NCBI GenBank assembly: GCA_964521295.1
Contig: CAZFRF010000001.1
Span: 398,146 to 462,145, forward strand
Length of the DNA: 64,000 nt
Direction of reading: 5' to 3'
Origin: an uncultured Gammaproteobacteria bacterium
Lineage (GTDB): Bacteria; Patescibacteriota; Microgenomatia; Levybacterales; UBA12049
In this document: positions 24,870 through 51,044 of the stretch, piece by piece
Layout of the letters: the number at the start of each line of letters is the position of its first letter
How positions within the stretch are numbered: the stretch's first letter is position 1
Made by a program: the position numbers and the translations under genes
Notes under the pieces: generated by a model
What the model saw: only the letters and a program-made list of their open reading frames with translations
The model's database searches: none
What the model was told of the DNA's origin: nothing

Positions 24870-24946
24870 GCCGCCATCGTCTAGTGGCCTAGGACGTCGG
24901 ATTCTCATTCCGAAAATCAGGGGTTCAACTCCCCTTGGCGGTACCA
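24870..24946 (+). tRNA. tRNA-Glu (anticodon CUC), CCA encoded
   Basis: Hand-folded cloverleaf: acceptor GCCGCCA/TGGCGGT (one G-U pair), D-arm GTCT..GGAC, anticodon stem TCGGA/TCCGA with loop TTCTCAT (anticodon CTC), T-arm AGGGG-TTCAACT-CCCCT, discriminator A, then CCA. Confidence 0.8.
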
Positions 24947-26463
24947 AACGAGATAGGGTGCTTGTCCATATATCGAATAGATTGATATATCGGGCTAATT
25001 CTATGGTTCAATGTTCCATTATAGTCCCAAGCTATTTCAAAGAGGAAGATTGAACCAAGAAGCACCCTGATCTGACTAATATTAGATCTTTTATAAGTTT
25101 CTCCTAAATCAGCTAGCAATGTTTTCATAAAAGTTGTTAATGCCTCTATATTATATTTATCCAATACCGAATCTTCTTTAACTATCTGCGCTCTCATTAT
25201 CTTATCTTCTATTATTGAATTTTGTTCTTTGAATATTTCATCAGAATAAATTCCTGATAGATTTTTTTCAATAAGTAATTCTCTAGTTGATTTCAATCTG
25301 ACAATTTCATCATCAGCACTTTCTTTAATTTTTTTCAGCCTAGAAAATCTCTCATTATAAGTTTTATACAAAAATTCCATAAATAGATCTAAACACTCTT
25401 TTGTTGGCGTTATCTCTTTTAATAATAGTATTAGTGCTTTTTCCAAATCTTTTACTTTTATTGAGGAATTAGGACAATTATTACTGCAACGATAGTACGC
25501 ATACATTGCACTTCTTCCCTTGCTCCAAGCTGCTGTTAATCCAGCGCTACATCTACCGCATTTTATTATTCGTCTTAGTGGAAACTCTGGATTTTCAAAG
25601 TTTCTCCTGGAAAGCGCAATTTTGTTAGGATTTCTACCATCTAGAATAGCCTGAACTTTATAAAACTTTTGCTCAGTAATCATCGGCACATGTTGGCCCC
25701 TTATCTCCTCCGGATATTTCTCAGAAGTCAAAACACCCATGTAAAATTTCAATCTAAAAATTCTATTAACAGTTTGTGGCCTTAGCTTATATTCTCTATT
25801 TTTTATTTTCGTCCTAATACCCCAGCTATTCATAATCTCTGCCATTTCAGATAAGCTTTTTGTTCCTGTCGCCATTAGATTCCAAGCATTGTTAATCAAA
25901 TCAAAAGTTTTTGGATCTTTTACGGCATATCCTGATTGAAATACATATCCAATTGGCGGTTTTGAGCTTATTAAGCCTGTCTTAAATCTTGCACGCATTC
26001 CATGCTTCGTTCTTTCACTTCTTATATCATTGTCCAACTGTGCAAATCCAGCAAGAATAGTTTCAACTAGCTTTTCAGTAGGACTATTACCTGTTGGTTC
26101 AGTGGCAGAAAGAATTACCACTCCGTTTTCAGCAAGTTTCTTTCTAATTGCTAAATAATCTCCAGTCTGCCGAGAAATTCTATCTAACCTATAAACAAAT
26201 AGTGCCTGAATTCTGTTTTTGTTTTTTCGAGAATATTCTAACAATTCAATAAGAGCAGGTCTTCCTGAAATATTCTTGGCTGATCTTCCTTCATCTTTAA
26301 ATATGTTAATGATTTCATATCCCCTTTTGACTGCCTCTTTTCGACAAATATCTTCCTGCGTCCTTAGGGAAAAGTTCTCAACCTGCTCCTCAGATGACAC
26401 ACGCAAGTATATAATTGCTTTTTTACCTGCTTCATAAACAATGGGATAACCGCTTGGCTTCAT
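24925..26463 (-). CDS. large serine recombinase (integrase)
   Basis: N-terminal resolvase domain AIIYLRVSSEEQ with the catalytic Ser, a central recombinase domain, a Cys-rich zinc ribbon (CGRCSAGL...YYRCSNNC) and a coiled coil. The 3' end overlaps the tRNA by 22 nt. Confidence 0.85.
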   Translation of the reverse strand: MKPSGYPIVYEAGKKAIIYLRVSSEEQVENFSLRTQEDICRKEAVKRGYEIINIFKDEGRSAKNISGRPALIELLEYSRKNKNRIQALFVYRLDRISRQTGDYLAIRKKLAENGVVILSATEPTGNSPTEKLVETILAGFAQLDNDIRSERTKHGMRARFKTGLISSKPPIGYVFQSGYAVKDPKTFDLINNAWNLMATGTKSLSEMAEIMNSWGIRTKIKNREYKLRPQTVNRIFRLKFYMGVLTSEKYPEEIRGQHVPMITEQKFYKVQAILDGRNPNKIALSRRNFENPEFPLRRIIKCGRCSAGLTAAWSKGRSAMYAYYRCSNNCPNSSIKVKDLEKALILLLKEITPTKECLDLFMEFLYKTYNERFSRLKKIKESADDEIVRLKSTRELLIEKNLSGIYSDEIFKEQNSIIEDKIMRAQIVKEDSVLDKYNIEALTTFMKTLLADLGETYKRSNISQIRVLLGSIFLFEIAWDYNGTLNHRISPIYQSIRYMDKHPISFGTAKGS

Positions 26464-26807
26464 TTCCCACCTCTTTCATGTAAAAATTCATTTAATGTTC
26501 TATTTCCCAGAATACTTCGCTCATAATCATCAAGCCAGCTTGCAATCAAATATTGAATTTCAGCAACAACCTCTTCTAATTGTTCTTTAGAGAATTCATT
26601 AGCTACTTTACCTAATATTTCCCTTGCTCTCTGGATCGATTTATCTTCATATTGCTGCTCAGGAAATAAAATATCCAAAGACTCTTTAATTGATCTTGAA
26701 GAATGTTTTATTCCTGGACGTGTAGGGCCTTCGCTATTTAAAACATTTATTAACGGTGTAGTAATTTTATCTTTACTTATTATTAACTGTTGTTCTGAAA
26801 CTTGCAT
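26460..26807 (-). CDS. small acidic hypothetical protein translationally coupled to the integrase (candidate regulator or recombination directionality factor)
   Basis: 115 aa. Its stop overlaps the integrase ATG (ATGA). No motif recognised. Confidence 0.4.
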   Translation of the reverse strand: MQVSEQQLIISKDKITTPLINVLNSEGPTRPGIKHSSRSIKESLDILFPEQQYEDKSIQRAREILGKVANEFSKEQLEEVVAEIQYLIASWLDDYERSILGNRTLNEFLHERGGK

Positions 26808-26820
26808 ATTTGAGCCTAAT

Positions 26821-26840
26821 ACTATCGATATATCGATAGT
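26821..26840. promoter_or_regulatory. perfect 20-bp palindrome ACTATCGATATATCGATAGT; candidate operator of the integrase operon
   Basis: It lies 14 bp upstream of the 26807 start. It overlaps a minus-strand promoter guess, -10 TATACT (26838-43) and -35 TTGACA (26862-67). Confidence 0.45.
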
Positions 26841-26907
26841 ATATATCTATATTTAGATAGTTGTCAAGGAGTATTTGTGCCTAAATTAACAATCTGTTTT
26901 ATAGATT

Positions 26908-26933
26908 TTCTTGTGTTATACTACGCACAAGAA
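26908..26933 (+). promoter_or_regulatory. inverted repeat TTCTTGTG-N10-CACAAGAA enclosing an extended -10 (TGtTATACT); candidate promoter and operator for the T4CP gene
   Basis: Seen directly in the sequence. It is divergent from the integrase operon. Confidence 0.35.
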
Positions 26934-26965
26934 ATCTACTATTACTGTCTACCTGCTCGAAGGAT

Positions 26966-29506
26966 ATGAATAACATTCAGCAGTTTGAAGCAAGTAACAT
27001 ACTTCATTTACTGTCCGCCAATCTATTAGGGAATCCTATTGCCAAAATCAGCTTTCCCCTCGTTCTATATGTCATAGTATTCTTAATAATTTGCTTGGCT
27101 ATATACGTTTTAAGAAAACTTATTGTTCTAAAAATGTTTTTAGACGAAAAACAAATAATATTAGAAATTACTCCTCCACAATTTATCGAAAAAGAAGCAT
27201 ATACAACAGAGCAACTCTTCTCTCTTATCCACGCTTTAGGAAAACAAAAAACATTTATGGATACGCTACTTGGAAGAAAAGTTCAGTTTTCTTTAGAAAT
27301 TGTTTCAACGAAAAATGAAGGCATTAGATATTTGATTAGGACAACACCCGAAAAAGCAAATACTTTAAGAAAGACATTAATTTCCTATCTTCCCCAGATA
27401 ATTATTAAAACAGTTGATGATTATCTTCCTAAAAATGATGAATTGAATACTAGTGAATATAAAATTGTTGAATATAAATTAACAAATCATTTTGCATATC
27501 CACTTAAGAAACAAAACTTACTAGATAAGCACGATCCCATTTCGTACATAACAGGAATGATGACAAAGCTAAATTCTAAAGAGCTTGTATCTCTTCAGAT
27601 AATACTTACTCCCGTAGCGTTAAAAGAAACAAAGAAAATTGCAAAATATATACTTAAAAATGCAGATACTCTTCATTACCTTAATTCAACAAAACTTCTA
27701 AGGCTTTTATCAATAGCTCCGAGTAAAACAATTGAGAGACAATCGTCATCTGAGAAAAAGATAATCGAATCAGTTGAAGAAAAAATAAAGCAACCACTTT
27801 TTAATACCTCTTTAAGGGTCTTCTTAATTTCAGATAGTAATAAGAATATTTCTGAAAGACTAAGTGGTATAAACTCTTCTTTTACTAGTTTTTCTGCTTC
27901 TAATTATCAATCAATAGCTTCCCGAAAATACTTAAACATTAAATTTATGAAAAATGTATTGTTATTTTCATTCAAAAAAAGACTTTCCCTACTAAACAAG
28001 TCTTTTCTTTCAATATCAGAAATTTCCTCAATATATCATTTTCCATTTGCGAACATAGTTAGCGCTGAAGATTTAGTTAAAACGCACAGCAAAACTTTAC
28101 CTGCTCCACTAAGCTTAAAACAATTAAATAAATATGAGGTTGTCTTTGGAAGTAACCATTATGGAGGCTCTATAACTGAAATTGGCTTAACTGAAGAGGA
28201 AAGGGCAACACATATGTATATTATTGGCCGAACCGGGTCAGGTAAAACCACGATGATGTTTTCAATGGCAAAACAGGACATTGAACAAGGCAGAGGTATG
28301 GCTTTTCTAGATCCCCATGGGGATGTTTCCGATGATCTTCTATCCATTATTCCGAAAGGGCGGCTGAATGATCTTGTTTATATAAATCCAATCGATTTAA
28401 AGTATCCAATCGGAATAAATATTCTAGAGCTAACCAAAGGACTTGACGCCGACGAAGCAGAGCTTGAAAAAGAAGTCGTTTGCGAAGGCGTTATTTCTTT
28501 ATTTCGAAAAGTATTCTCAAAAGAAGAGAATGTAAACGCTCATAGAATTGAATATATTCTCCGAAATGCTATTTATACAGCCTTTACAGTTGAGAATAGG
28601 ACTATCTTTACTGTATATGATCTTTTGAATAATCCTCCGTTCCAAAAACAGGTTATTTCAAAGCTAAAAGATGAGAACTTAAAAAACTTTTGGAAATTTG
28701 AATTTGGCAGAGCTGGAGATTATCAAGTGGTTAAAATGGTCGGTGGAGTTACAGCGAAGATTGGAAGATTTCTTTTTTCACCAACTGCTAAAAGAATTTT
28801 AGAACAGCCAATTTCAACAATTAATTTTGACCAGTTGCTAGATGAGAAAAAAATAATTATTTGTAATTTATCTCAAGGAAAACTTGGTGAGGATACCTCA
28901 AAACTTTTAGGAACAACTATAATGACCAAGATTCAACAGGCTGCTCTTAAGAGAGCCAATATTCCAGAAAACGAAAGAGTTCCGTTTTACCTATATGTTG
29001 ATGAGTTTCAAAACTTTGCAACCCACTCTTTTACTAAAATGTTATCAGAAGGCAGAAAATACAAACTGCGCGTAATACTTGCAGAGCAATCAACTTCTCA
29101 GCAGGATGATCGAAATATTGTGAATGTAATTCTTGCAAATGTAACAACTGTTGTAGTTTTTAGAAGTGCAAATTACATTGATGAAGAGTTGATGTTAAAT
29201 CAATTTGCTCCTTACATCGACAGAGGTGAGATATCAAATCTTCCAAAGTATAATTTCTATATTAAAATTTCAGCTCTTGTTCCGGAGGAACCATTCTCGG
29301 GAGTTACGATCTATACGCCACTTAAAAAAGACTATAAATTGATTGAAGAATTAATTAATGCTTCCAGAAAAAATAATGCGATAGTCTATCAAAAAGTAAA
29401 ACAACAAACTGTTGAAATTTCAACTAAAGACACCGAAGAAAAGAGTATGAATAGCAGAAATATTATTAATACTAAAGGTGGATTTCCTGTTAGTAGAGTT
29501 GCTTAA
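26966..29506 (+). CDS. type IV coupling protein (VirD4/TraG/TrwB family ATPase)
   Basis: N-terminal TM. IIGRTGSGKTTMMFSMAKQDIEQGRGMAFLDPHGD matches the TrwB/VirD4 Walker A region with its following DPxGD motif. Walker B is YLYVDEFQNF. Confidence 0.65.
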   Translation: MNNIQQFEASNILHLLSANLLGNPIAKISFPLVLYVIVFLIICLAIYVLRKLIVLKMFLDEKQIILEITPPQFIEKEAYTTEQLFSLIHALGKQKTFMDTLLGRKVQFSLEIVSTKNEGIRYLIRTTPEKANTLRKTLISYLPQIIIKTVDDYLPKNDELNTSEYKIVEYKLTNHFAYPLKKQNLLDKHDPISYITGMMTKLNSKELVSLQIILTPVALKETKKIAKYILKNADTLHYLNSTKLLRLLSIAPSKTIERQSSSEKKIIESVEEKIKQPLFNTSLRVFLISDSNKNISERLSGINSSFTSFSASNYQSIASRKYLNIKFMKNVLLFSFKKRLSLLNKSFLSISEISSIYHFPFANIVSAEDLVKTHSKTLPAPLSLKQLNKYEVVFGSNHYGGSITEIGLTEEERATHMYIIGRTGSGKTTMMFSMAKQDIEQGRGMAFLDPHGDVSDDLLSIIPKGRLNDLVYINPIDLKYPIGINILELTKGLDADEAELEKEVVCEGVISLFRKVFSKEENVNAHRIEYILRNAIYTAFTVENRTIFTVYDLLNNPPFQKQVISKLKDENLKNFWKFEFGRAGDYQVVKMVGGVTAKIGRFLFSPTAKRILEQPISTINFDQLLDEKKIIICNLSQGKLGEDTSKLLGTTIMTKIQQAALKRANIPENERVPFYLYVDEFQNFATHSFTKMLSEGRKYKLRVILAEQSTSQQDDRNIVNVILANVTTVVVFRSANYIDEELMLNQFAPYIDRGEISNLPKYNFYIKISALVPEEPFSGVTIYTPLKKDYKLIEELINASRKNNAIVYQKVKQQTVEISTKDTEEKSMNSRNIINTKGGFPVSRVA

Positions 29507-29510
29507 AAAA

Positions 29511-29530
29511 TGTACCTACGTGTAGGTACA
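29511..29530. promoter_or_regulatory. perfect 9-bp-arm inverted repeat TGTACCTAC-GT-GTAGGTACA flanked by A/T runs; candidate oriT or bidirectional terminator
   Basis: Lies between the coupling protein gene and the replication-relaxation gene. Confidence 0.35.
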
Positions 29531-29686
29531 AAAAATTAACAAAATTGAAGCTAAAAATGTGAAAAGCGCAGACTCTTTATACTTATATAAATATAAGGGG
29601 ATGTAAATGAATCTAAAACAAAGATTAAAAACCTGATATCTGTGTAACTCTTCTGCTCTCTGCTCTAATTTACTAATTAATTTAAA

Positions 29687-30448
29687 ATGAAACTTCAACC
29701 AATTACTAAAACACAAAAACTCATACTTCTACTCCTCTATAAATTTCGCTTCTTAACTGTAGCCCAATTGCAACAATATCTTAACCATAAAGACCCACAT
29801 AGAATTAAAGCTTGGCTTAATGATTTAAAAGATAAAAAATATATATCTGCGGTTGTAGATACGAAAGACGTTACGGTTCCTTTTATCTATTGTCTCGCAA
29901 CTGGATCAAGACAAATTTTTAAAGAAAAAAATTATGATGAAGATTTCTTGAATAGAATATATAAAGAAAAAAGTTTATCAAAGGAATTTAAGAATCATTG
30001 CCTTTTTATTTTAGATATATATTTGTTCTTTCGCTCTCAACAAGAAAAAGATTCCATGCTTAATTTTTGTACAAGACAAGATTTAGCGGGTTTTGATTAT
30101 TTACCCGATGAAATTGATGCTTTTATAGAAGTTGGCATTAAAGACGAAATAAATAGATATTTCTTAGAACTATTTGACGAATATAGAAAAACAGCTGGAG
30201 AATCAAGATACGCTATTAGAAAATATATTTCGTATTCTGAAGAAGGTAATTGGCAAGGAAATACCGGGAATGCTCCATTTCCATCAATTCTTTTTGTTCT
30301 TCCAGATGAAAGACGAAAAAAACATATTAAATTTTATGGACATGCAAAACTGTCAAAAACTTTTGAAGACATTTCTTTATTCATAACTACAAAAAATAAT
30401 ATTCAATTTGCCAAGAAAAATATTAATATCTGGCAAAAGATAAGTTAA
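29687..30448 (+). CDS. replication-relaxation family protein (PF13814-like)
   Basis: N-terminus KTQKLILLLLYKFRFLTVAQLQQYL matches the characteristic winged-helix start of replication-relaxation proteins of conjugative elements. Confidence 0.5.
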   Translation: MKLQPITKTQKLILLLLYKFRFLTVAQLQQYLNHKDPHRIKAWLNDLKDKKYISAVVDTKDVTVPFIYCLATGSRQIFKEKNYDEDFLNRIYKEKSLSKEFKNHCLFILDIYLFFRSQQEKDSMLNFCTRQDLAGFDYLPDEIDAFIEVGIKDEINRYFLELFDEYRKTAGESRYAIRKYISYSEEGNWQGNTGNAPFPSILFVLPDERRKKHIKFYGHAKLSKTFEDISLFITTKNNIQFAKKNINIWQKIS

Positions 30449-30493
30449 ATAGAAAAATAAAAGTATAAACATTAGGCTGTTATCAAATAAAAC

Positions 30494-31381
30494 TTACCCA
30501 GCCTTATCTCCTGGAGGACAATCCACAAGCTCTGTTTCTATAGTTGCGTGCTCAATCTGAAAATCATTTCTAAGTTTTTCTTTAATTACCTTTACTACCT
30601 CTATGCTTTCTTCCAATGTGCATTTTTCAATGGTAATATGACAACTAAGCGCAGCGTCGTGAGAAGAAATTGCCCAAGCATGTAAATCATCTGCATTCTT
30701 TACATTGGGAGTATCAAGTATTGAATGCTTTACCTTTTCTATATCTAATCCTTCAGGAGTACCCTCTAGCAGCACATGAACAGAAGCTCTTACAACACTC
30801 CAGCTTCCTCTAATGAGAAATATTCCAATAACGACACTAATCATTGAGTCAAAGATTGACATTCCGGTAATCATAATCAAAACACCCGCTACAAGTGCTC
30901 CAAAAGAAGCCAGGGCGTCAAAGATCATATTCATGTAGGCGCTTCTCATATTCAGATCTTTCTTTTCGCTTCTGAAAAGTAATGCAACACAAATATTTAC
31001 ACAAAGGCCTATAAACGCCACTATTGCCACAATTCCCCCCTCAACAGATTGCGGCGTTAAGAATCTTTGATAAGCTTCATAGAAAATATAAAGAGCGAGG
31101 AGGAATAATATCAAGCCGTTTATTAATGCTGCAAGAATTGTGGCTCTTCCGTATCCATAAGTATGTTCATCATTAGCTTTTCTCTTTGCAACCCTATTTG
31201 TTAAAAAAGAAATAAGTAAAGTTAAAGCATCAGTTAAATTATGTCCTGCATCTGAAATTAATGCGAGACTTCCAGACAGAATTCCTGCAATGAATTCAAT
31301 AATAGTGAATCCAACACTTAAGAATAGGCCTATTTTAAGTTTCTTATCAAGTCTTTCAGGGATATTATGATTTTCGCTCAT
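30494..31381 (-). CDS. cation diffusion facilitator (CDF) family metal efflux transporter
   Basis: Six TM helices, HNLTDAL, DALASFGAL and a His/Asp-rich cytoplasmic C-terminal domain. Confidence 0.75.
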   Translation of the reverse strand: MSENHNIPERLDKKLKIGLFLSVGFTIIEFIAGILSGSLALISDAGHNLTDALTLLISFLTNRVAKRKANDEHTYGYGRATILAALINGLILFLLALYIFYEAYQRFLTPQSVEGGIVAIVAFIGLCVNICVALLFRSEKKDLNMRSAYMNMIFDALASFGALVAGVLIMITGMSIFDSMISVVIGIFLIRGSWSVVRASVHVLLEGTPEGLDIEKVKHSILDTPNVKNADDLHAWAISSHDAALSCHITIEKCTLEESIEVVKVIKEKLRNDFQIEHATIETELVDCPPGDKAG

Positions 31382-31435
31382 GGCTTAATCTTAACATTTA
31401 GTTAAGTATAAAAATCACTTAGGCAAAATAAGGAA

Positions 31436-43125: not shown

Positions 43126-43773
43126 TTACTGAGAATAACCCCAATCAGCATACCATTGCCTCATCTGGTCAATTTCATCTGTCTGAGCAGTTATTATGTC
43201 GTCTGCTAACTTCTTCATTTCAGGTCTTTGTGTCCCTCCTTTAAGCATACTTGCCATCATCACAGCCATTTGGTGATGTGGAATCATATCTTCTATGAAC
43301 GCTTTATCAAAGTCCTCTGTATTTTCAAGTCTTGTCATGTCAGTATCGTTACCCATCATTCCCATGTGCATACTGTTTCCCATTCTCATTCCGTGTTGAT
43401 TCATGACATTATTTCCTTCAGGAACATCTTTGCCAAACCAAGCTATGTACCAATCTTTCATTTGGTTAATTTCTGCTCCTTGAGAACTAATGATATTTTC
43501 TGCTAACTGTTTTATTTCAGGCCTCTGTGCTTTTTCCTGAGCAAGTTCTGCCATCGTTATTGCATCTTCGTGATGTGGAATCATTTGTTCTATAAAATGT
43601 GCGTCGATTGTATTAGAATCCTGCACTGTGCTTAGCTGATTTCCATTTTTATAACCCATCATTCCCATCACATTCGCATTATTTGAATTAACAATTATCA
43701 TAGTAGTAATCCATACAATTAACCCTCCAACAATTAACCCTCCAATTCCATACATTAGTTTATCGTTTTTCAT
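43126..43773 (-). CDS. DUF305 domain protein, internally duplicated (copper-associated family)
   Basis: Two repeats, FIEQMIPHHEDAITMA...INQMKDWY and FIEDMIPHHQMAVMMA...IDQMRQWY, plus a Met/His-rich linker. Confidence 0.6.
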   Translation of the reverse strand: MKNDKLMYGIGGLIVGGLIVWITTMIIVNSNNANVMGMMGYKNGNQLSTVQDSNTIDAHFIEQMIPHHEDAITMAELAQEKAQRPEIKQLAENIISSQGAEINQMKDWYIAWFGKDVPEGNNVMNQHGMRMGNSMHMGMMGNDTDMTRLENTEDFDKAFIEDMIPHHQMAVMMASMLKGGTQRPEMKKLADDIITAQTDEIDQMRQWYADWGYSQ

Positions 43774-43827
43774 ATTCTCACCCCCTTATCTTATTAAGAT
43801 TAAATACCCATATTCATATTTATGCAC

Positions 43828-44637
43828 CTATGATTCAACAACGCTTACGACACCTCCAAAGCCGGGATTTATATGATCATGAAATTCCCATTTACCCTTT
43901 TTGTCAAATACATATCTATAAATTGCACTTTTTTTGTAAGCTCTAAATTGATCAAATGTTGGTAATATGGTGTGTTGTGGATGAGACATAGACGCAACCC
44001 ACATATCTGTACTACTCTCATTTATAAATTCAACCGTACTACCAACTGGAACATCTACTTTATCCGGCACAAATCCTTTATCCGTATAACGAATTTTCGC
44101 CATAGTTTTTGCGCCTTTCATTGCATGAGTCATTCCAGCAGATTCTCCTTCAGTAATACTTGTTGGTAATGATTTACCTGATTTTACGTATCGGGCCGTC
44201 ATAAAACCGTTTTCATCAATTGCTGGCATGTCAAGATCGTTAAATGTACTGTCATTTGCATAATCCTCATAAATCATGACAATCAGCTCTTGATTTGCAA
44301 CTTTAGCATTTCCTAGTGGAATCTCTACATTTTTATGCATGCCTTTTTGTAATGGTCGACTCATTTCAATAACTTGACTCAACTTACCATCATTCATTTG
44401 TCGAACTACAAGAAAACCGTTCTTTTGTAATATTGCACTTGCAACATTTACCTTATCTTTAGGTTTTTGGGGAACAACCACAAGATTTTTTGTATTTTGA
44501 CTATTAACCTTTTCTCCTCTATCTTGAGACCGAAGTGTTTTTGTCGATGGCTTACTTTTATTCAGAAAAATAAAAACTACTGAAACCGTTACTGCTAGAA
44601 ACCCACAAAAAACGATAAAAAATTGTAGTGCTTTCAT
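43828..44637 (-). CDS. secreted hypothetical protein with His/Met-containing C-terminal beta domain (possible cupredoxin-like metal binder)
   Basis: Signal anchor. The C-terminus reads GSTVEFINESSTDMWVASMSHPQH...EFHDHINPGFGG. Confidence 0.3.
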   Translation of the reverse strand: MKALQFFIVFCGFLAVTVSVVFIFLNKSKPSTKTLRSQDRGEKVNSQNTKNLVVVPQKPKDKVNVASAILQKNGFLVVRQMNDGKLSQVIEMSRPLQKGMHKNVEIPLGNAKVANQELIVMIYEDYANDSTFNDLDMPAIDENGFMTARYVKSGKSLPTSITEGESAGMTHAMKGAKTMAKIRYTDKGFVPDKVDVPVGSTVEFINESSTDMWVASMSHPQHTILPTFDQFRAYKKSAIYRYVFDKKGKWEFHDHINPGFGGVVSVVES

Positions 44638-44909
44638 TATTGTCTTTTTTTAAAAACCTCCATTATTTCATTAATTGATTTATCAGCTTCTCCTTTTTTA
44701 ATCGCATCCGAAACGCAAGACTTAAGGTGATTTTCAAGAAGTAGGTTGCCCGTTTCTTTAAGTCCTGATTCAACTGCCTGAATTTGATGAATAACATCAA
44801 TGCAATAAGCATCTTCATCCATCATCTTAATGACTTTATCGAGGTGTCCTCGTGCAATCTTGAGACGGTGAGTAATTCTTTCGTGTGTGTCTTTTGGTCT
44901 GTATGCCAT
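44637..44909 (-). CDS. csoR: CsoR/RcnR family metal-sensing transcriptional repressor
   Basis: 90 aa all-helical. It carries the conserved C-H-C ligand set (YCIDVIHQ ... HLKSC). Confidence 0.8.
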   Translation of the reverse strand: MAYRPKDTHERITHRLKIARGHLDKVIKMMDEDAYCIDVIHQIQAVESGLKETGNLLLENHLKSCVSDAIKKGEADKSINEIMEVFKKRQ

Positions 44910-44932
44910 ATATCCCCCTATGAGGGATATAT
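44908..44932. promoter_or_regulatory. candidate CsoR operator: ATATATCCC-N7-GGGATATAT perfect 9-bp inverted repeat
   Basis: It resembles known CsoR operators (AT-rich arms with internal C/G tracts). It overlaps the csoR start codon and the -10 region. Confidence 0.55.
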
Positions 44933-44957
44933 TAAAGATTTACGAAATGAAAGTCAA
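44929..44957 (-). promoter_or_regulatory. sigma70-like promoter for the csoR/copper operon
   Basis: Read on the minus strand: -35 TTGACT (44952-57), 17-nt spacer, -10 TAATAT (44929-34). Confidence 0.45.
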
Positions 44958-44995
44958 GAGTTCTTAACAATAAATATTTTTATATCTTTTAACTA

Positions 44996-45025
44996 TTGAC
45001 ATATAAATCAACCTCTGATATAAAT
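44996..45025 (+). promoter_or_regulatory. sigma70-like promoter for the T4SS operon
   Basis: TTGACA (44996-45001), 17-nt spacer, TATAAAT (45019-25). Divergent from the csoR promoter. Confidence 0.5.
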
Positions 45026-45053
45026 TGATCCAATTAAATATTGTTTGTTCTAG

Positions 45054-45080
45054 AAACTGCTTGGGGGCAGTTTTTTGGTT
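45054..45080 (+). promoter_or_regulatory. leader stem-loop (AAACTGC-TTGGGG-GCAGTTT) followed by a T-run, between the promoter and the pilin RBS; terminator-like attenuator candidate
   Basis: 7-bp stem and 6-nt loop, then TTTTTTGGTTTT. It sits immediately upstream of the SD AGGAGG at 45086-91. Confidence 0.35.
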
Positions 45081-45098
45081 TTGAAAGGAGGTGAGAAT

Positions 45099-45443
45099 AT
45101 GAAAAAGTTAATCATAATTCAATCTGTTTTTATTACTTCATTAATAGTCGCTACTCCTGCGCTCGCTCAAACCACTGGAGGAGACGTTACAAGAATTCAA
45201 AATTTCATTCAAAGCATAATTGGTATTTTTGTAACTCTTTCTGGACTTATCGCAACTGGATTTTTTGTATATGGAGGAGTTCGCTATATAACAAGCTCAG
45301 GAAATCCTGAAGCACTAGATTCAGCAAAAAAAACTATTTTATATTCATCAATTGGTCTTGCTATAGTTCTAGGAGCGTTCGTTTTAAGTAATATAGTCAC
45401 ACAGGTTGCAACAACAGCTTTTGGTTCAAGTTCTGGTCTATAG
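45099..45443 (+). CDS. VirB2/TrbC-like conjugative pilin
   Basis: The signal peptide ends in PALAQ. Two hydrophobic helices separated by a short polar loop. SD AGGAGG lies 7 nt upstream of ATG 45099. The ORF-track start at 45075 is a TTG upstream of the SD and is unlikely. Confidence 0.6.
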   Translation: MKKLIIIQSVFITSLIVATPALAQTTGGDVTRIQNFIQSIIGIFVTLSGLIATGFFVYGGVRYITSSGNPEALDSAKKTILYSSIGLAIVLGAFVLSNIVTQVATTAFGSSSGL

Positions 45444-45460
45444 AAATTAGAAAGGAACTT

Positions 45461-46741
45461 ATGAAATTATTAAAAATTGCTGGCTTTTTAGCTACAATAT
45501 TTTTTATATCTGCCAATCCTGCATTCGCTGCAGGAGGAAACCTTGCGACTTTTACTTCTCAAACTCTGAATACATTAATAATCTTTGCCACTCTTGGAGC
45601 AACTTTCTTCTTAATAAAAGGTGGATATTCATACATCACTTCTGCTGGTAAGCCAGAAGCTTTAGAACACGCCAAGCTAACTATAAGAAATGCTGTAATA
45701 GGCTTAGTCTTAGTTTTAGGTGCATCTCTAATTACTTCTCTTTTAACCAATGCATTTAATACACCAACTGGTAATTTTACTTCGACTCAAATAGCGCTCT
45801 CCCCAATTGTGCCTGCTACTCCTTCAAACGGATTAACGCAGGTACTTTTAGACGCTATTGCAGGATTTTTACAAAACATAGTACAAAGCGCAACTAAGCC
45901 TCTTGTTGATGGAATAATTAGCTTTTTAACTACTACCCCCTCTTTAACTTCAAATTCAGTAATATTTAATTTTTGGCTTGTAATAGTAGGCATCACTGAT
46001 GCACTTTTTGCAATAGTTATTGCTCTTCTTGGACTTCATATTATGAGCGCTTCCACTTTTGGATTTGATGAGATTGAATTTAAACATCTTCTCCCTCGTA
46101 TTGGACTTGCATTTTTACTTGCTAATACTTCAATCTTTTTAGCAAATTGGGTTATTCAAGCTGCGAACGCATTAGTAAACGCACTAATAAATTCATTTGG
46201 AGGGATTGAAAGCGCTTGGATTTTAAACGCATTTAATCCGGCATCACTAATAGCTGGAACAACTTCTATAATTACTCTTATTTTTATGATTATTTTTGTA
46301 ATTCTTGCAGTAGTGCTTATTCTCTTCTACATATCTCGTCTTATTTTAATTTCGCTTGGAGCTGTTCTCTCTCCACTCATTTTTCTTCTTTGGATAATAC
46401 CAAGATTCTCTGATTTTGCTGAAATTACAATTAAAACATATATAATCACTGTCTTTTCTACTTTTGTTCACGTTGTAATAATTCTTTTAGCCTCTGCTTT
46501 TCTTACCATTCCAGGGCAAAGGGGAACGAATTCTCTGATTTCAATTCTCGTTGGGATTGGCTTACTTTTTACTCTTCTTAAAACTCCTGGAATTATGATG
46601 CAGATGGTTTTCTATAACTCAGGACGAGGTATGGTAAAAAAAGTTGGAAGTCAGATTATTAATGTGATTTCAACTCAAAAAGCATCCGAAGCAGTTACCG
46701 GAGAAATTGTAAAAACCCCAAGAAAGGTTATTGCAGCATGA
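45461..46741 (+). CDS. VirB6/TrbL-like polytopic T4SS membrane protein with an N-terminal pilin-like domain
   Basis: The N-terminal 100 aa are homologous to the preceding pilin (YSYITSAGKPEALEHAK vs VRYITSSGNPEALDSAK), followed by 6 or more TM helices. Confidence 0.5.
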   Translation: MKLLKIAGFLATIFFISANPAFAAGGNLATFTSQTLNTLIIFATLGATFFLIKGGYSYITSAGKPEALEHAKLTIRNAVIGLVLVLGASLITSLLTNAFNTPTGNFTSTQIALSPIVPATPSNGLTQVLLDAIAGFLQNIVQSATKPLVDGIISFLTTTPSLTSNSVIFNFWLVIVGITDALFAIVIALLGLHIMSASTFGFDEIEFKHLLPRIGLAFLLANTSIFLANWVIQAANALVNALINSFGGIESAWILNAFNPASLIAGTTSIITLIFMIIFVILAVVLILFYISRLILISLGAVLSPLIFLLWIIPRFSDFAEITIKTYIITVFSTFVHVVIILLASAFLTIPGQRGTNSLISILVGIGLLFTLLKTPGIMMQMVFYNSGRGMVKKVGSQIINVISTQKASEAVTGEIVKTPRKVIAA

Positions 46742-47250
46742 GAACTCGAATAATTCCAGCTCAAATTACTACAGTCGAGGACAAAATTGCTGGAAATCTT
46801 AGTTTAACTCAGCTTTTGCTTTTAGTTTTTCCTGCTTTTATTTCGGCTTTAGCATATATCGTTCTCCCTCCAATACTTTCCTTTTCAATTTATAAGCTAC
46901 CTATAATTTTTATCTCAATTTTCATTTGCTGTACTCTCGCTATACGAATCAAAGACAAATTAATCCTTAATTGGATTACTATATTTATTTCTTACAATGT
47001 CAGGCCAAAGTTTTATGTATTTAATAAAAATGATGCTTATCTAAGAGATATAGATTTACCATTAAATAAAAAATCACGACCAATTTTTAGAAAAAAAGTT
47101 ACGCGAAGTGCAAAAAAAGTAATCCCAACCATAAGTCCTAATGAACTTGTAAGACTTGATGATTTAATAAGTAATCCGAGATATAGATTTAGCATTAAAA
47201 ATAGCGGAAAAGGAGGTATGCATGTTGCTTTTGAACAAGAACAAAAATAA
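46738..47250 (+). CDS. VirB3-like (PrgI/TcpE-type) small membrane protein
   Basis: Two adjacent TM helices near the N-terminus. Position immediately upstream of VirB4. Confidence 0.4.
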   Translation: MRTRIIPAQITTVEDKIAGNLSLTQLLLLVFPAFISALAYIVLPPILSFSIYKLPIIFISIFICCTLAIRIKDKLILNWITIFISYNVRPKFYVFNKNDAYLRDIDLPLNKKSRPIFRKKVTRSAKKVIPTISPNELVRLDDLISNPRYRFSIKNSGKGGMHVAFEQEQK

Positions 47251-47833
47251 AACATCGTCAAGACAGCAAATTCAAATAAAAGAAGTGCGAGATGGAATTT
47301 TGATACTACCAAAGAGTGAATTTCGAGTAATTATCGAAACTTCTTCAATAAATTTTGAATTAAAAAGCGAAGAAGAACAAGATATATTAATTGATAGTTT
47401 TCAAAACTTTCTTAATTCCCTTCCGGGAAAGCTTCAGGTACTTGTTAGAGTAAGAGAAATTGATATTGAGAGTTATCTTGAACAAATAGGAAAAAGTAAG
47501 GAGATTGAAAAAGAAAAAATATATAAGATGCAAATTGACAATTACAGTTCTTTTATTAAAAACCTAGTAACGGGTAATAAGATATTATCCAGACGCTTTT
47601 ATATTGTTATTTCATATGAACACACTGATAAAAACAAGGAATATTCAATAATAAAAGAGCATATGTATCTGCAAAGAGATCTTGTTGGAAGAGGTCTTGA
47701 AAAACTTGGAATGAAAGCAAGAGTCTTAGACAGCCTTGAAGTATTAGATTTATTCTATAGCTTTTATAACCCAAATCAAATCAAAACACAGCAGCTAAAA
47801 GAGCAAACTATAGAAATGTTACTTAAGAATTAA
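47222..47833 (+). CDS. VirB4 N-terminal domain fragment (split or frameshifted virB4, part 1)
   Basis: KEVRDGILILPKSEFRVIIETSSINFELKSEEEQDILIDSFQNFLN resembles the VirB4/TraE N-terminal region. Its stop is 1 nt before the next ATG, in a different frame. Confidence 0.45.
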   Translation: MLLLNKNKNKTSSRQQIQIKEVRDGILILPKSEFRVIIETSSINFELKSEEEQDILIDSFQNFLNSLPGKLQVLVRVREIDIESYLEQIGKSKEIEKEKIYKMQIDNYSSFIKNLVTGNKILSRRFYIVISYEHTDKNKEYSIIKEHMYLQRDLVGRGLEKLGMKARVLDSLEVLDLFYSFYNPNQIKTQQLKEQTIEMLLKN

Positions 47834-47834
47834 T

Positions 47835-49655
47835 ATGCAAAACCTTAATAAACAATTTAATAAACTACCATCCAAGTATTCAATACCATATTTTGGAAAG
47901 AAAGGTAGAAAAGCGAAAAAAGCGCAACTGCTTAGAAAGTCTTTTGAGTATAACTTTGGTGAACAGGATCAAGTTGATTTAATCTCATACTCTGGTCTTG
48001 AAGAAAATGGTACCTATCTTAAAATAGGAGATAAATATGTTCGAACATTATTTATATCCGCCTTTCCCTATATAGCCTCTACTGGATGGCTAAATATGCT
48101 TATTAATTTTAATCATGATATTGATATCTCCTATCATATTGAACAAGTTGACCCGCTTGTTGCTTTACCTAAACTAAATAGAAAAATAACAGAGCTTGAA
48201 TCTACAAAAAGAGCCATGCAAAAAAATGGCAAAATAATTGGTTCTGAAATAACAGATCCATTAGAATCGGCAATTCTTTTGAAAGATAAAATTCAAAGAG
48301 GTCAAGAAAAACTTTTTCAAATATCAATCTACATGGGTTTAAGCGCCGACAGTCTAGAGCAACTAAACAAATTAACAACCATTCTCGAAACAGCAATGTC
48401 CACTCATCTTTTTTATATAAAGACAGCAGCTTTTCAACAACTTGAAGGCTTGCAATCTGTTCTTCCCCGTTCTGAAAACAAGCTTAATCAAAAAAGAAAT
48501 TTGGATTCCTCATCAGCTGCTCTAACCTTCCCTTTTGTTTCATCAGAACTCGTTCAAGAAACAGGAATATTATATGGAATTAACAAATCAAATAATTCAT
48601 TAGTTATCGTTGACAGATTTTTACTTAATAATGCAAATAGCATTATTTTTGCTCAATCTGGAAGCGGTAAAAGCTATGCTGCAAAAGTTGAAATACTTCG
48701 TCAACTTATGCAAGGAACACGCGCAATTATTATCGATCCTGAACGCGAATATAAACAGCTTGCAGAATCAGTTAATGGAACTTATATAAAACTTTCTGCA
48801 AAATCCCATGAAAAAATCAACCCATTTGATTTTTCTCTTACTTCAAACAATGATGGCGGTGATCTCGTTGAGCATATTCAAGATCTAACAGAAATTATTT
48901 CCCTTCTTGTTGGCTCTCTTACTACAGAAGAAAAAGCAATTGTAGACAAGGCAATAATTCAAACATACAAAGAGCATGGTTTTTCACTTAATGCCAAGAA
49001 TATTTCAAAAAAAGACAAAGAATTTCCACTTTTAAAAGATTTCTATAAGGTGTTAAAAGACATGAAGCAAAAAGATCTTAGCAATAGACTGGAACGCTTT
49101 GTAAAAGGCTCTTTGTCATCTGTTTTTGACCAACAGACCAATATTGAGATTAATAATAGACTAGTGGTTTTTGATATTAAAGATTTGAATGAATCACTTC
49201 GACAAATTATGATGATGGTAATTGCAAACTTTGTAAATTCCCAGGTTAAATCAAATCCTCAAAAAAGAATATTAGTAATTGATGAAGGATGGATGCTTCT
49301 TGAACATCCAGAAAGTGCAAGATTTATTTCAGGCCTAGTTAGACGAGCAAGAAAATATTATCTAGGCGTAACAATTATTACGCAGCAAGCAAATGATTTT
49401 CTCACCCAAGAATATGGAAGAGCAATTGCAAGCCAATCCTCCCTTAGAATTCTAATGCGCCAAGATACGACAACAATTAAAAAAGTCGCACAAGAATTTA
49501 AATTAAGTGAATATGAAGAACACTTTCTTTTAACTTGCGATCGTGGAGAGGGATTAATTATAGCCGATCAAAATCATGTAGCCTTAAAAGTTGTTGCATC
49601 AGAAAAAGAACATCCACTGCTTACGACAGATCCTAAGGAGATATATTTAATCTAG
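47835..49655 (+). CDS. VirB4-family conjugal transfer ATPase (part 2, ATPase domain)
   Basis: Walker A IIFAQSGSGKSY. The VirB4-type Walker B is LVIDEGWMLL (the DEAW box). Combined with the upstream fragment the length is about 809 aa. Confidence 0.75.
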   Translation: MQNLNKQFNKLPSKYSIPYFGKKGRKAKKAQLLRKSFEYNFGEQDQVDLISYSGLEENGTYLKIGDKYVRTLFISAFPYIASTGWLNMLINFNHDIDISYHIEQVDPLVALPKLNRKITELESTKRAMQKNGKIIGSEITDPLESAILLKDKIQRGQEKLFQISIYMGLSADSLEQLNKLTTILETAMSTHLFYIKTAAFQQLEGLQSVLPRSENKLNQKRNLDSSSAALTFPFVSSELVQETGILYGINKSNNSLVIVDRFLLNNANSIIFAQSGSGKSYAAKVEILRQLMQGTRAIIIDPEREYKQLAESVNGTYIKLSAKSHEKINPFDFSLTSNNDGGDLVEHIQDLTEIISLLVGSLTTEEKAIVDKAIIQTYKEHGFSLNAKNISKKDKEFPLLKDFYKVLKDMKQKDLSNRLERFVKGSLSSVFDQQTNIEINNRLVVFDIKDLNESLRQIMMMVIANFVNSQVKSNPQKRILVIDEGWMLLEHPESARFISGLVRRARKYYLGVTIITQQANDFLTQEYGRAIASQSSLRILMRQDTTTIKKVAQEFKLSEYEEHFLLTCDRGEGLIIADQNHVALKVVASEKEHPLLTTDPKEIYLI

Positions 49656-50278
49656 TGAGTCCACTTCTAATTTCTACTATCTGGTCTTTTAAAAAAGAAC
49701 TTATAATTGTTTCCTCAGCATTCCTAATAACTCTTTTAATTCCGGTCGTTGCTGTAATTCTTTTGACTAATTCAGGTATTGATATAATTTCCGACAGGCT
49801 TGCAACAAAAAACTTACAAACTCAGACAGTTACGATTCATGATCCAGCAACCGGAAAAATAATTAGCACTATAAATGTTAATACCTCTTGGCCTACAAAT
49901 GGCGTAGTTACATTAGAATTTGGAGAGCCAAATCTACCCTATCAACTTTTCCATTCTGGAATTGATATAGCCAGTCCAAACGGAAAAGTGGGAAATCCAG
50001 TCACAGCTCTCATGCCTGGAAAAGTCATTTATGCAGGAGAGATATCTTGGGGGTTTGGAAAACATATAATAATAGATCACGGAAACAACGTAACCTCAAT
50101 TTATGCCCATCTAGATAAAATTTACGTAGCTAAAGATCAAGAAATTAAAACTACAGATCAAGTAATAGGACTTGAAGGGGAAACCGGATGGGCAACTGGT
50201 CCACATCTCCACTTTCAGGTAAATGTTTTCGGAATACCCGTTAACCCAAGAACTTTTTTATCGGGAAACCCAAATTAA
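49655..50278 (+). CDS. M23 peptidase (T4SS-associated cell-wall hydrolase, VirB1 functional analog)
   Basis: N-terminal TM and HSGIDIA...HLHFQV M23 motifs. Confidence 0.65.
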   Translation: MSPLLISTIWSFKKELIIVSSAFLITLLIPVVAVILLTNSGIDIISDRLATKNLQTQTVTIHDPATGKIISTINVNTSWPTNGVVTLEFGEPNLPYQLFHSGIDIASPNGKVGNPVTALMPGKVIYAGEISWGFGKHIIIDHGNNVTSIYAHLDKIYVAKDQEIKTTDQVIGLEGETGWATGPHLHFQVNVFGIPVNPRTFLSGNPN

Positions 50279-50305
50279 TAAATACCTATGTTATAATATC
50301 GATAT

Positions 50306-50524
50306 ATGAATAATCCTAAATTCAGAAAAGAAGTAGGAGAAAGAATAAAAGCAGCTAGATTAAAAGCTAAACTCACTCAAGCAGAAGTGGCTAAAAAAGC
50401 CGGAATAAATACAAATTATTATTCTGTAATAGAACGTGGAGAAGTAAATACAACTCTTGAAAAATTACAAAAAATAAGTAAAGCTTTGGGGCTAGACGTT
50501 TCAGATATAACTAAGACTAAATAA
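50306..50524 (+). CDS. XRE-family helix-turn-helix transcriptional regulator
   Basis: 72 aa. LTQAEVAKKAGINTNYYSVIERGE HTH. Confidence 0.75.
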   Translation: MNNPKFRKEVGERIKAARLKAKLTQAEVAKKAGINTNYYSVIERGEVNTTLEKLQKISKALGLDVSDITKTK

Positions 50525-50960
50525 ATTTACCAAGCTTTAGGAAATTAAACATTTCCAAAGTAAATTCCTCACTTTCTATTCTTCTCATAATTTCTCTACT
50601 TTTTATTTGAGATAAAATATTAAGACTTCCTTCCCAGAGTATTTTTCGATCCAATATTGCCAACTTTCTGTGATGATTTCCAACACATATAAAGGTTTGT
50701 ACGCCCATAGTTTCAAATTCGACAATTGCCTGCTCTGATTGGCTTTGTAATGACTCAGAATGTTCCCTTGGATCACGTGTAACAACATAGATTTTTATCT
50801 TCTTTTCAATTAATTTTTCGAATATGGGCATTAAGAAGGACATGCGCTCTGAAGTGATATATGGACTTTCTACAATAACCTCGTTCTTACAATTCAGAAG
50901 ATCTCTAATAAAGATTTTATAAAAAGTCCTTTCATCAAATAAAGCAGAGGAAAACATCAC
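50517..50960 (-). CDS. phospholipase D-family (Nuc-like) nuclease, single HKD domain
   Basis: HKD motif HRKLAILDRKILWEGSLN (H-x-K-x4-D-x6-GSxN). Confidence 0.65.
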   Translation of the reverse strand: MMFSSALFDERTFYKIFIRDLLNCKNEVIVESPYITSERMSFLMPIFEKLIEKKIKIYVVTRDPREHSESLQSQSEQAIVEFETMGVQTFICVGNHHRKLAILDRKILWEGSLNILSQIKSREIMRRIESEEFTLEMFNFLKLGKFI

Positions 50961-51044
50961 TCATCCTCCTTTTTGGCTTGATAAGCCTCCATTAAGTTGT
51001 TAAAATGAGCCAAGAGCGGTTCAAAATAAGAGTCGTCAGGAGTA

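Follow-up and report, generated by a model that had tools for sequence, protein, structure and literature searches.

Do candidate phyla radiation (CPR; Patescibacteria) bacteria conjugate? These organisms account for a large part of bacterial diversity; their genomes are tiny, they live attached to other microbes, and how they gain genes is poorly known. The question is raised by a 64,000-nucleotide stretch of DNA (contig CAZFRF010000001.1 of GenBank assembly GCA_964521295.1, positions 398,146 to 462,145), here called the window, in which an island of about 26.1 kb (positions 24945 to 51045 of the window) lies at the 3′ end of a tRNA-Glu gene and carries a serine integrase and a type IV secretion system (T4SS). 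In our reading the island is probably an integrative and conjugative element (ICE) in the chromosome of a Candidatus Levybacteria host and would conjugate by means of its own T4SS, type IV coupling protein (T4CP), and MOB_C-like protein. Because the element is delimited by exact junctions and comes with candidates for the relaxase and the origin of transfer (oriT), the locus makes the question of CPR conjugation open to specific assays.

The host was placed by its Lon protein (54143-56542). A set of species-representative genomes held 289 relatives of this protein, and the best 80, at 73 to 86% identity, came nearly all from metagenome-assembled genomes (MAGs) of Candidatus Levybacteria, Levyibacteriota, or Patescibacteria. 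Because of the source of these matches, the host is assigned to the Microgenomates group of the CPR, bearing out a suspicion already voiced in the first-pass annotation of the window. A compositional break at the island, which that annotation had proposed as a check, was modest but real: the G+C content of the element is 0.32 to 0.35 versus 0.30 for the left flank, and its tetranucleotide distance is 0.18 to 0.21 versus 0.07 to 0.12 for host chunks of the same size.

An insertion of about 26 kb at tRNA-Glu had been suspected, and the neighborhoods of the Lon relatives confirmed it. In about 40 of these loci the gene order is Lon, tRNA-Glu(CUC), GT2, MptA/B-like, and PMT_2, and the same genes flank the island. 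Lon and GT2 are separated by 161 to 205 bp in four relatives (L027, L031, L039, and L049; retrieved loci are designated by L numbers), versus 29.35 kb in the window. This comparison of gene orders shows the island to have inserted at the 3′ end of tRNA-Glu(CUC) (24870-24946, plus strand; Rfam tRNA score, 61.6 bits), which was the sole tRNA gene that ARAGORN found in the window; an Rfam scan gave no match besides this tRNA. Empty sites were thus found as anticipated, in a form other than the predicted one: tRNA-Glu followed directly by the gene for a 407-residue protein was not seen, and the right-hand neighbor in the relatives is Lon. In other relatives the Lon-GT2 interval is hypervariable (0.2 to 8.4 kb), with T4CP homologues inside it in L035 and L070, a CsoR/CopA/DsbD-cupredoxin/HMA cassette in L044, and scars of earlier elements in L004, L008, L010, L016, and L033. 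Breaks of Logan contigs at 24890 and 24978 were considered as a sign of mixed occupied and empty sites; this idea was dropped, as they are better explained by k-mers common to other tRNA-Glu genes and to sister elements.

The island was also found in a second species. A 60-kb contig from Sequence Read Archive (SRA) run SRR32046553 (L174) carries the element at tRNA-Glu(CUC) beside GT2, MptA/B, and PMT_2. Between position 24940 of the window and the point where the retrieved sequence stops (40448), the two copies showed 3 differences in 15.5 kb (99.98% identity), whereas the 1.9 kb of left flank was 51 to 72% identical at the nucleotide level. Likewise, the element proteins were 99 to 100% identical, and the flanking proteins were 64% (GT2), 54% (MptA_B), and 56% (PMT_2) identical. 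The acceptor stems of the two tRNAs differ by compensatory changes (GCCCCGT/ACGGGGT in the window against GCCGCCA/TGGCGGT in L174); the last host-specific base is 24939, and 100% identity begins at GGTAC. A chimeric assembly formed through the shared tRNA core does not account for this junction, at which the host-specific 3′ strand of the acceptor stem joins element DNA directly. A near-identical element in two distinct Levybacteria species is therefore direct sequence evidence of very recent interspecies transfer with site-specific insertion, and the alignment shows, at the level of sequence comparison, that the element moves as a unit. Contigs 100% identical to the window were present in SRA runs SRR14271340, SRR14271344, SRR14271365, and SRR14271372.

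A sister element occupies a different site. On one 87.6-kb contig (L172 and L084), both backbone halves are about 85% identical to the window at the nucleotide level; L172 aligns over window positions 24869-30442 at 85%. The tRNA gene that it abuts is tRNA-Glu(UUC), and its flanks and cargo differ from those of the window. The presence or absence among relatives and the occurrence in different hosts or at different sites that characterize ICEs were thus all observed, as empty sites, as the L174 copy, and as the sister at tRNA-Glu(UUC).

No long direct repeat of the tRNA 3′ end that could serve as an attachment site was found within the window beyond chance. This absence fits a serine recombinase, and the borders were set by comparison with relatives instead. 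The attL core, GGTAC (24940-24944, at tRNA positions 70 to 74 approximately), was defined as the crossover region by the L174 comparison, and GTAC occurs also at the right end (attR core, 51042-51045). There, homology to L084 and L085, whose VirB4 proteins are 92% identical to that of the window, stops at 51046-51048, with unrelated DNA beyond. These two loci align with 45012-50281 and 50279-51048 at 82 to 87% nucleotide identity, and their DNA is unrelated to the left of 45012, at position 50280, and beyond 51047 on the right; in the more distant elements L168 (from a Woykebacteria genome) and L170, homology begins exactly at 45013. Three independent comparisons thus fixed attL and attR to within 4 to 5 nt, and the borders of 24870 and 51044 proposed initially were within a few bases of those derived here. 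The element has three parts, namely a left backbone (24945-30442), a cargo slot (30443-45012), and a right backbone (45013-51045), with a small second hotspot at 50280. As expected for a large serine recombinase, the common core of the two ends is only GTAC/GGTAC. The reconstructed attP junction reads AATAAGAGTCGTCAGGAGTAC joined to CAAACGAGATAGGGTGCTTG, and the reconstructed attB junction reads CAACTCCCCTTGGCGGTAC joined to TAAAAAATATTAAATAGAGG. Dyad symmetry of the reconstructed attP sites is too weak (5 to 6 of 12 positions) for the crossover dinucleotide to be pinned down.

In all family members, the few bases that close the right end are also those in which the targeted tRNA ends: GTAC in the window, GCAC in L152 at tRNA-Leu(UAG), TCCGCAC in L133 at tRNA-Leu, and CCCGCTCCA in L121 at tRNA-Gly(GCC). 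The tRNA-Glu genes of most relatives end in GGTAC followed by non-CCA sequence, while in the window GGTAC is followed by CAaacgag. The CCA end of the window tRNA is supplied by the element, because GGTAC continues without CCA in most relatives. An element reaching as far as Lon (54142) was considered, as Lon adjoins the tRNA in relatives; it was rejected since the homology of three elements breaks off at 51046-51048, exactly where the open reading frame (ORF) of the integrase is restored.

The integrase is a large serine recombinase of 512 residues (24925-26463, minus strand). Its Resolvase (112 bits), Recombinase, and Zn_ribbon_recom domains all score above the Pfam cut-offs, the active-site motif YLRVSSEEQ is present, and the nearest NCBIfam families are XisF and CcrA/B/C. 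The gene does overlap the tRNA 3′ end, as first described; it lies on the minus strand, however, and so ends there rather than starting there. The TGA stop (24925-24927) lies in the T arm of the tRNA, and within the 22-nt overlap the last four codons and the stop come from the host tRNA. At the other end of the element, a detached 3′ end of the integrase ORF (50957-51041, minus strand) forms the P arm of attP and encodes a 27-residue tail, PDDSYFEPLLAHFNNLMEAYQAKKEDE, whose stop overlaps the ATG of the adjoining PLD gene. Joining 51045 to 24945 yields one longer integrase ORF of 535 residues that ends in HPISFGT, PDDSYFEPLLAHFNNLMEAYQAKKEDE, and a stop. The ORF was restored across attP in all four reconstructions (the window, L152, L121, and L133), with the tail motif YF.PLL..HF..LMEAYQ. 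These reconstructions show an integrase ORF that spans attP, so that integration swaps its last 27 residues. The tail read from the tRNA in the integrated state is AKGS in the window and P in L174, each followed by a stop, and the lengths of 512 and 509 residues, respectively, result from this replacement. The right-end sequence was conserved in 14 right ends or relics, and the strong conservation of its 90 nt is due to the coding of the integrase tail. A conserved GGTTCAAAATAAG in the right end had been considered as a mimic of the tRNA T loop; the coding of the tail (SYFEP) accounts for it at least in part. Among 120 integrase homologues in the database, at least 47 end in tRNA read-through, and one (P0453) has an attP-form tail.

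The gene directly behind the tail encodes a PLD/Nuc-type nuclease (50517-50957, minus strand; PLDc_2, 35 bits) with one HxK(x)4D motif (HHRKLAILD) and a likely ATG start at 50957. It is the last right-end gene in the window and in L084, L085, L152, and L168, and in L121 it is the sole homologue of a window gene found near the right end by tblastn. The integrase tail, or an integrase-PLD operon specific to the circle, may act as a switch between the integrated and the free state. Attachment sites within coding sequences are familiar from the integration-dependent immunity systems of mycobacteriophages and from SSV1-type integrases, which are split by integration. As in those cases, attP here lies inside a coding sequence and integration alters the encoded C terminus. 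In contrast with them, the gene is a large serine recombinase, and only the last 27 residues are exchanged, for 1 to 5 or more tRNA-encoded residues.

A search of JGI metagenomes identified 284 relatives of the integrase, for which 80 loci were retrieved. In 77 of these 80, a small ORF lies directly upstream of the integrase gene; in the window it encodes 115 residues (26460-26807, minus strand), is translationally coupled to the integrase, and has no Pfam or NCBIfam match. Its product is possibly an accessory or directionality factor. The divergent intergenic region between this operon and the T4CP gene (26808-26965), a candidate operator/promoter, contains a perfect palindrome of 12+12 nt (26819-26842; ATACTATCGATA/TATCGATAGTAT) that is likely, as predicted from its sequence, to be the binding site of a regulator.

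Layered remains of such ends were observed at the tRNA-Glu site of L004, the closest relative by Lon (86%). In the segment L004:7960-10800, the right end of the element occurs twice, together with a pseudogene of PLD, a RelE/Phd pair, and part of a tRNA 3′ end that adjoins an integrase C-terminal relic; elements seem to have accreted in tandem and then decayed. Positions 8793-8817 of L004 hold GGGGTACCAAACGAGATAG, a joined junction resembling attP; together with the tail of P0453, this sequence hints at joined ends. In eight Levybacteria relatives (L004, L021, L038, L048, L049, L062, L070, and L083), tRNA-Glu(CUC) is reversed within a short Lon-GT2 interval, and this may be the trace of a recombinase-mediated inversion.

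A type IV coupling protein, one hallmark of an ICE, is encoded to the right of the integrase operon. This VirD4/TrwB-type protein of 846 residues (26966-29506, plus strand) matched TrwB_AAD_bind (31.7 bits; cut-off, 20.5) and TraG-D_C (29.8 bits; cut-off, 22) and has one N-terminal transmembrane segment, a Walker A motif (GRTGSGKT), and a Walker B motif (YLYVDE). Its sequence matches in the PDB were TrwB (1.9e-6) and DotL only; those in NCBIfam were TraD and CedD.

The next gene encodes a Replic_Relax protein of 253 residues (29687-30448, plus strand) that scored 24.2 bits, just short of the cut-off, with PF13814, of the MOB_C superfamily. PF13814 was matched by 44 of 50 homologues of this protein (best E value, 2.6e-14), and a profile search returned 1,267 cluster representatives at 50% identity, 853 of them at E values of ≤1e-10. 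An AlphaFold2 model (pLDDT, 92) has an N-terminal winged helix (wHTH) and a C-terminal alpha/beta domain. The first-pass annotation had recognized no canonical MOB relaxase. That statement has to be revised, because PF13814 is the Pfam domain of the MOB_C superfamily, the one that CONJscan calls MobC (PMC5357655), and a relaxase candidate is therefore present. We regard the protein as a MOB_C-type relaxase that is probable rather than proven.

The 180-bp spacer between the T4CP and Replic_Relax genes (29507-29686, plus strand) is a candidate oriT. Within it lie an inverted repeat of 9 bp (29511-29530), in which L123 shows a compensatory change, and a block of 38 nt (29570-29607) that does not vary among four of the six elements compared. 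The block is one base off in L123 and differs in five columns in L177 (two bases and a 3-nt deletion), while the T4CPs of the elements compared are only 65 to 88% identical to that of the window. A conserved, covarying hairpin of this kind is what nominates the spacer as oriT.

Class 8 of the streptococcal integrative and mobilizable elements (IMEs) likewise unites a PF13814/MobC relaxase with a serine integrase and a coupling protein of the VirD4 type (Coluzzi et al. 2017, PMC5357655). Those IMEs are mobilizable only and, unlike the element in the window, have no T4SS. The CPR integrase family further differs from them in sitting at tRNA 3′ ends and in having attP inside its own ORF, and the proteins have diverged beyond what BLAST detects (no match for the candidate relaxase in PLSDB).

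The right backbone encodes the T4SS, all on the plus strand. Its first gene (45075-45443) specifies a VirB2-like pilin that matched T4SS_pilin (46 bits), TrbC, and the NCBIfam family of Mbov_0395 ICE pilin-like proteins (43.4 bits; cut-off, 40). It is followed by a polytopic membrane protein (45461-46741) with eight transmembrane-like segments, in which a pilin-like N terminus (T4SS_pilin, 27.8 bits) is fused to a VirB6/TrbL-like body (TrbL_4, 21.6 bits, below the cut-off), and by a PrgI/VirB3-like protein (46738-47250; PrgI, 30.6 bits; cut-off, 27). VirB4 is split in two, since a TrsD-like protein of 203 residues (47222-47833; TrsD match), the equivalent of the VirB4 N-terminal domain, covers positions 4 to 175 of the NCBIfam CD1110 profile and the VirB4 ATPase (47835-49655) covers positions 187 to 734. 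The latter is of the CD1110/MPF_FATA type, Patescibacteria clade, and scored 387 bits with conju_CD1110 (cut-off, 325) besides matching P-loop_TraG and AAA_10. An M23 peptidoglycan hydrolase (49655-50278; Peptidase_M23, 94 bits), a functional analogue of VirB1, follows directly after virB4 in all sister elements. The next gene, identified by its ORF translation, encodes an XRE-family helix-turn-helix regulator (50306-50524) that is 93 to 99% identical in sister elements and whose orthologues in L084 and L085 match HTH_3/HTH_31.

An ICE is expected to encode VirB4 and mating-pair formation proteins, and both are encoded here, with PrgI, the pilin, and M23 above and VirB6 below the respective cut-offs. 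The profile matches and the gene order (a FATA-type VirB4 with TrsD, PrgI, and a VirB2-like pilin beside it) place the system among the Patescibacteria T4SSs derived from MPF_FATA. The T4CP, Replic_Relax, VirB2/VirB6/VirB3/VirB4/M23, XRE, and PLD genes listed in the first-pass annotation were all recovered at their places by Pfam and NCBIfam, and the T4CP, VirB4, and recombinase assignments, for which it had asked for hidden Markov model support, all passed the cut-offs. None of the three outcomes that it had named as telling against its proposal (lack of an empty site, failure of these models, and lack of a compositional break) was observed.

The Firmicutes MPF_FATA ICEs and plasmids (CD1110/CTn2 and pGO1 TrsD types) share with the system of the window a CD1110-family VirB4 and TrsD and PrgI homologues, the Mycoplasma ICEs share the match of the pilin-like protein to the Mbov_0395 family, and all have a monoderm architecture with no outer membrane core. 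However, the host of the element belongs to another phylum, its VirB4 is split into TrsD and a body and is only 31 to 37% identical to plasmid VirB4 of Firmicutes and Actinobacteria, and its pilin is VirB2-like. The best VirB4 clusters among the matches listed were 78 to 92% identical, and their source names were mostly Patescibacteria.

The closest described systems are the Patescibacteria-clade T4SSs surveyed in 2025 (Quinonero-Coronel et al., PMC12102498) and, as far as it is cited there, by Wang et al. 2023. The survey found VirB4 in 2,417 of 3,035 genomes (about 80%), in a clade nested in MPF_FATA, with TrsD (typical of CPR T4SSs), PrgI, VirB6, and VirB2-like pilins nearby; 5,713 T4CPs were mostly far from virB4, and only 109 MOB relaxases were counted. 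The element matches this description in its VirB2-like pilin(s), VirB6, PrgI/VirB3, TrsD, VirB4, and wall hydrolase, in the same order, as well as in the MPF_FATA ancestry of VirB4 and in a T4CP more than 20 genes away from virB4. The right end of the T4SS in the Woykebacteria locus L168 abuts KsgA and YidC, the kind of origin-proximal genes listed near virB4 in PMC12102498. The survey regards these chromosomal, mostly relaxase-less T4SSs as co-opted for mostly non-conjugative roles and mentions no recombinase, integrase, tRNA site, or ICE boundary. In contrast, the T4SS of the window is part of a delimited element that was transferred recently and that also encodes a serine integrase, a T4CP, and a MOB_C-type protein. 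The locus thus questions the published view that CPR secretion systems no longer serve DNA transfer.

A transfer cycle can be proposed from these parts. The serine integrase, perhaps with the coupled 115-residue protein, would excise the element as a circle. Circularization would rebuild the 535-residue integrase with its conserved 27-residue tail and place the PLD gene directly behind it in one operon. The Replic_Relax/MOB_C-like protein would then nick the hairpin region (the candidate oriT) between the T4CP gene and its own gene, and the VirD4-type coupling protein would pass the DNA to the monoderm-type T4SS (VirB2-like pilin, VirB6, VirB3, split VirB4, and M23). In the recipient, the integrase would insert the circle into tRNA-Glu, giving the tRNA a new 3′ end including CCA.

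Several observations weigh against self-transfer of this kind. No circular junction of the window element was found, including in an attP-junction scan of IMG/VR. The Pfam score of the Replic_Relax protein is just under the cut-off of 25.3 bits, and the protein had no sequence match among PDB chains or PLSDB plasmids. The best Foldseek matches of its model were weak (E values of 7e-3 to 5e-2) and were to Cdn1, Can2, XisH, and the restriction enzyme PaqCI, which we take to be PD-(D/E)xK-type nucleases. No VirB8 homologue was detected among the element ORFs. Elements of this kind can also become fixed: L177 and L170, which lie 16 bp apart on a 566-kb scaffold (ENA BAEC19-1 scaffold_3, 194-237 kb), carry a T4CP, Replic_Relax, about 18 kb of cargo, and a T4SS with no integrase or tRNA. 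Finally, the T4SS clade is nearly universal in Patescibacteria, and in one Saccharibacterium it is essential for epibiotic growth, for which the T4CP is dispensable (PMC12102498); the T4SS may therefore serve interaction with the host cell and not self-transfer.

The main rival explanation builds on this last point. It holds that the island is mobile and integrative without being self-conjugative, that its T4SS is a machine of the CPR lifestyle (attachment, import, or effector delivery) carried as payload, and that it spreads by natural transformation, a helper element, or vesicles before the integrase inserts it. That about 80% of Patescibacteria genomes carry the T4SS clade, for the most part with no detectable relaxase (PMC12102498), agrees with this explanation, as do the small family members L121, L133, and L152, which have the same ends and no T4SS. 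However, the window element has an intact T4CP and a MOB_C-type protein beside a candidate oriT that is conserved, and most family members have this module in linkage with the integrase. Transformation would moreover have to bring in a 26-kb circle that then integrates site-specifically, which is hard to square with the import of single-strand fragments. Across orders, the T4SS proteins also show higher conservation than Lon (Levybacteria compared with Woykebacteria, 82% identity for VirB4, 75% for the pilin, and 74% for TrsD, versus 57% for Lon), which fits horizontal spread of the T4SS itself. On balance we consider a non-conjugative island unlikely and self-conjugation the better explanation.

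Far less probable is that an old insertion became fixed, lost its mobility, and survives in the island as a decaying remnant. Decayed relatives do exist (the scars in L004, L008, L010, and L016, and L177 and L170 with no integrase), and one cargo gene (M23/coiled-coil) is truncated; yet all backbone ORFs are full length with their catalytic motifs, and the 99.98% identical copy in a species whose flanking genes are 51 to 72% identical contradicts such an account. A prophage, a phage-like element, or an assembly artifact is hardly credible: a serine integrase beside a tRNA is also a prophage signature, but none of the 28 element ORFs scanned with Pfam matched capsid, terminase, portal, or tail families, IMG/VR scans with VirB4 (as a single sequence and as a profile) and with the attP junction gave no matches, and contigs from at least five SRA runs match the window at 100%.

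By class the element is probably an ICE, a known kind, and differs from known members in its phylum, in a T4SS clade held to be non-conjugative, and in an integrase with attP in its own reading frame. The first-pass annotation had judged such an element essentially undescribed. In the literature searched, we found no description of this element family and none combining Patescibacteria, a serine recombinase, and conjugation, and the judgment holds to that extent; the 2025 survey (PMC12102498) gives no integrase, tRNA site, or ICE boundaries.

The integrase belongs to a large family, with homologues in at least 913 clusters (90% identity) at E values of ≤1e-30. Source names of family proteins include Levybacteria, Woesebacteria, Daviesbacteria, Woykebacteria, Curtissbacteria, and related groups. 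Among the retrieved loci with enough downstream sequence, the tRNA 3′ end lies 4 to 9 nt from the crossover-equivalent codon in 64 of 67, and the family targets at least 16 tRNA species (five for Leu, three each for Gly and Ser, two for Glu, and one each for His, Met, and Val). Where at least 6.5 kb upstream of the integrase was available, a T4CP was found in 17 of 23 loci and Replic_Relax in 21 of 23. L100 is compact, with tRNA-Leu(CAG), integrase, T4CP, Replic_Relax, pilin, VirB6, PrgI, and TrsD and only 2 kb between the modules; in L113 and L114, pilin homologues (and VirB6 in L114) occur a few kilobases from Replic_Relax, before the sequence ends. L121, L133, and L152 are 5.6 to 9.8 kb long, share the same two ends, and have no T4SS and for the most part no T4CP, so that they look like relatives of the large element that are mobilizable or minimal integrative forms. 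The pair L177 and L170 looks like a fixed derivative. In L177, a Phd/YafQ pair and short ORFs stand beside the T4CP in the place of integrase and tRNA. A second right end was observed in L123 (12246-12331), and L139 and L142 contain a second, diverged integrase copy in the same tRNA cluster. One genome can thus have several family members in neighboring tRNA genes.

These numbers raise a wider possibility, which we advance tentatively and with less confidence than the reading of the island itself. The nearly universal "chromosomal" T4SS of Patescibacteria, at least in Microgenomatia, might be the mating apparatus of a very large and still mobile family of ICEs and IMEs with tRNA-targeting serine recombinases, with MOB_C-like relaxases largely missed by MOB typing and with an integrase-tail/PLD switch. 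If so, ultra-small CPR bacteria would routinely conjugate, their T4SS loci would be mobile elements (some later fixed) and not a co-opted housekeeping organelle, and attP in the integrase ORF together with circle-specific coupling to PLD would constitute a switch that senses the integrated versus the free state. Large serine recombinases that target tRNA genes with predictable attB sites may in addition interest those who search for genome engineering tools, including tools for genetically intractable CPR bacteria.

Between the backbones lies the cargo slot of 14.6 kb (30443-45012); homology to the sister elements breaks off at 30442 and is found again from 45013 on. Pfam matches identified a CDF transporter, a truncated coiled-coil/M23 protein, DsbA, DsbB, HMA, DsbD-cupredoxin, and a further DsbA; a BlaR1-like M56 peptidase, a BlaI-like repressor, an alpha/beta hydrolase, a BNR protein, and a P1B copper ATPase; and a beta-propeller protein, DUF305, DUF7282-cupredoxin, and CsoR. 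The 14-kb metal-resistance cargo noted early on between the flanking modules is thus a copper/zinc/redox gene set of 14.6 kb. Cargo varies among elements: with metal resistance here, the sisters carry other metal genes or anti-phage defense genes, and the main slot of L168 and L170 contains restriction- or defense-like genes. A second accessory-gene hotspot, between the M23 and XRE genes, is empty in the window (50279-50305) and filled in L084, by a Shedu SduA_C gene (L084:12442-13470), and in L085 to L087, by AAA_15 and a gene for 244 residues (L085:9422-11259).

One cargo gene (31436-32620) encodes a secreted coiled-coil (PcsB-like) protein with half an M23 domain (profile positions 2 to 52 of 96); its length of 394 residues is the same in L174, and it may be a truncated gene. 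Directly downstream of Lon in another Levybacteria MAG, L044:13151-17499 holds a CsoR, CopA, DsbD-cupredoxin, and HMA cassette with 46 to 64% amino acid identity to the window cargo, and no T4SS or integrase is visible within the retrieved stretch.

The chromosomal flanks vary as well. Gene content of the glycosylation cluster to the left (PMT_2, YfhO, PTPS_related, and GT2) differs between the window (1-24800) and L174 (1-5100), and nothing in the retrieved L174 stretch corresponds to the three plus-strand genes at 15621-21310, which suggests that this cluster beside a tRNA hotspot is a variable cell surface locus. On the right, 51046-54142 is an additional variable segment outside the element, between its right end and Lon. 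Within it, 52271-54142 contains genes for proteins of 164, 221 (guanylate kinase-like), and 197 residues; this part has the highest G+C content of the window (0.38), an outlying tetranucleotide profile, and a partly foreign composition, and weak homologues of the 197-residue protein occur at the same place in L005 and L007.

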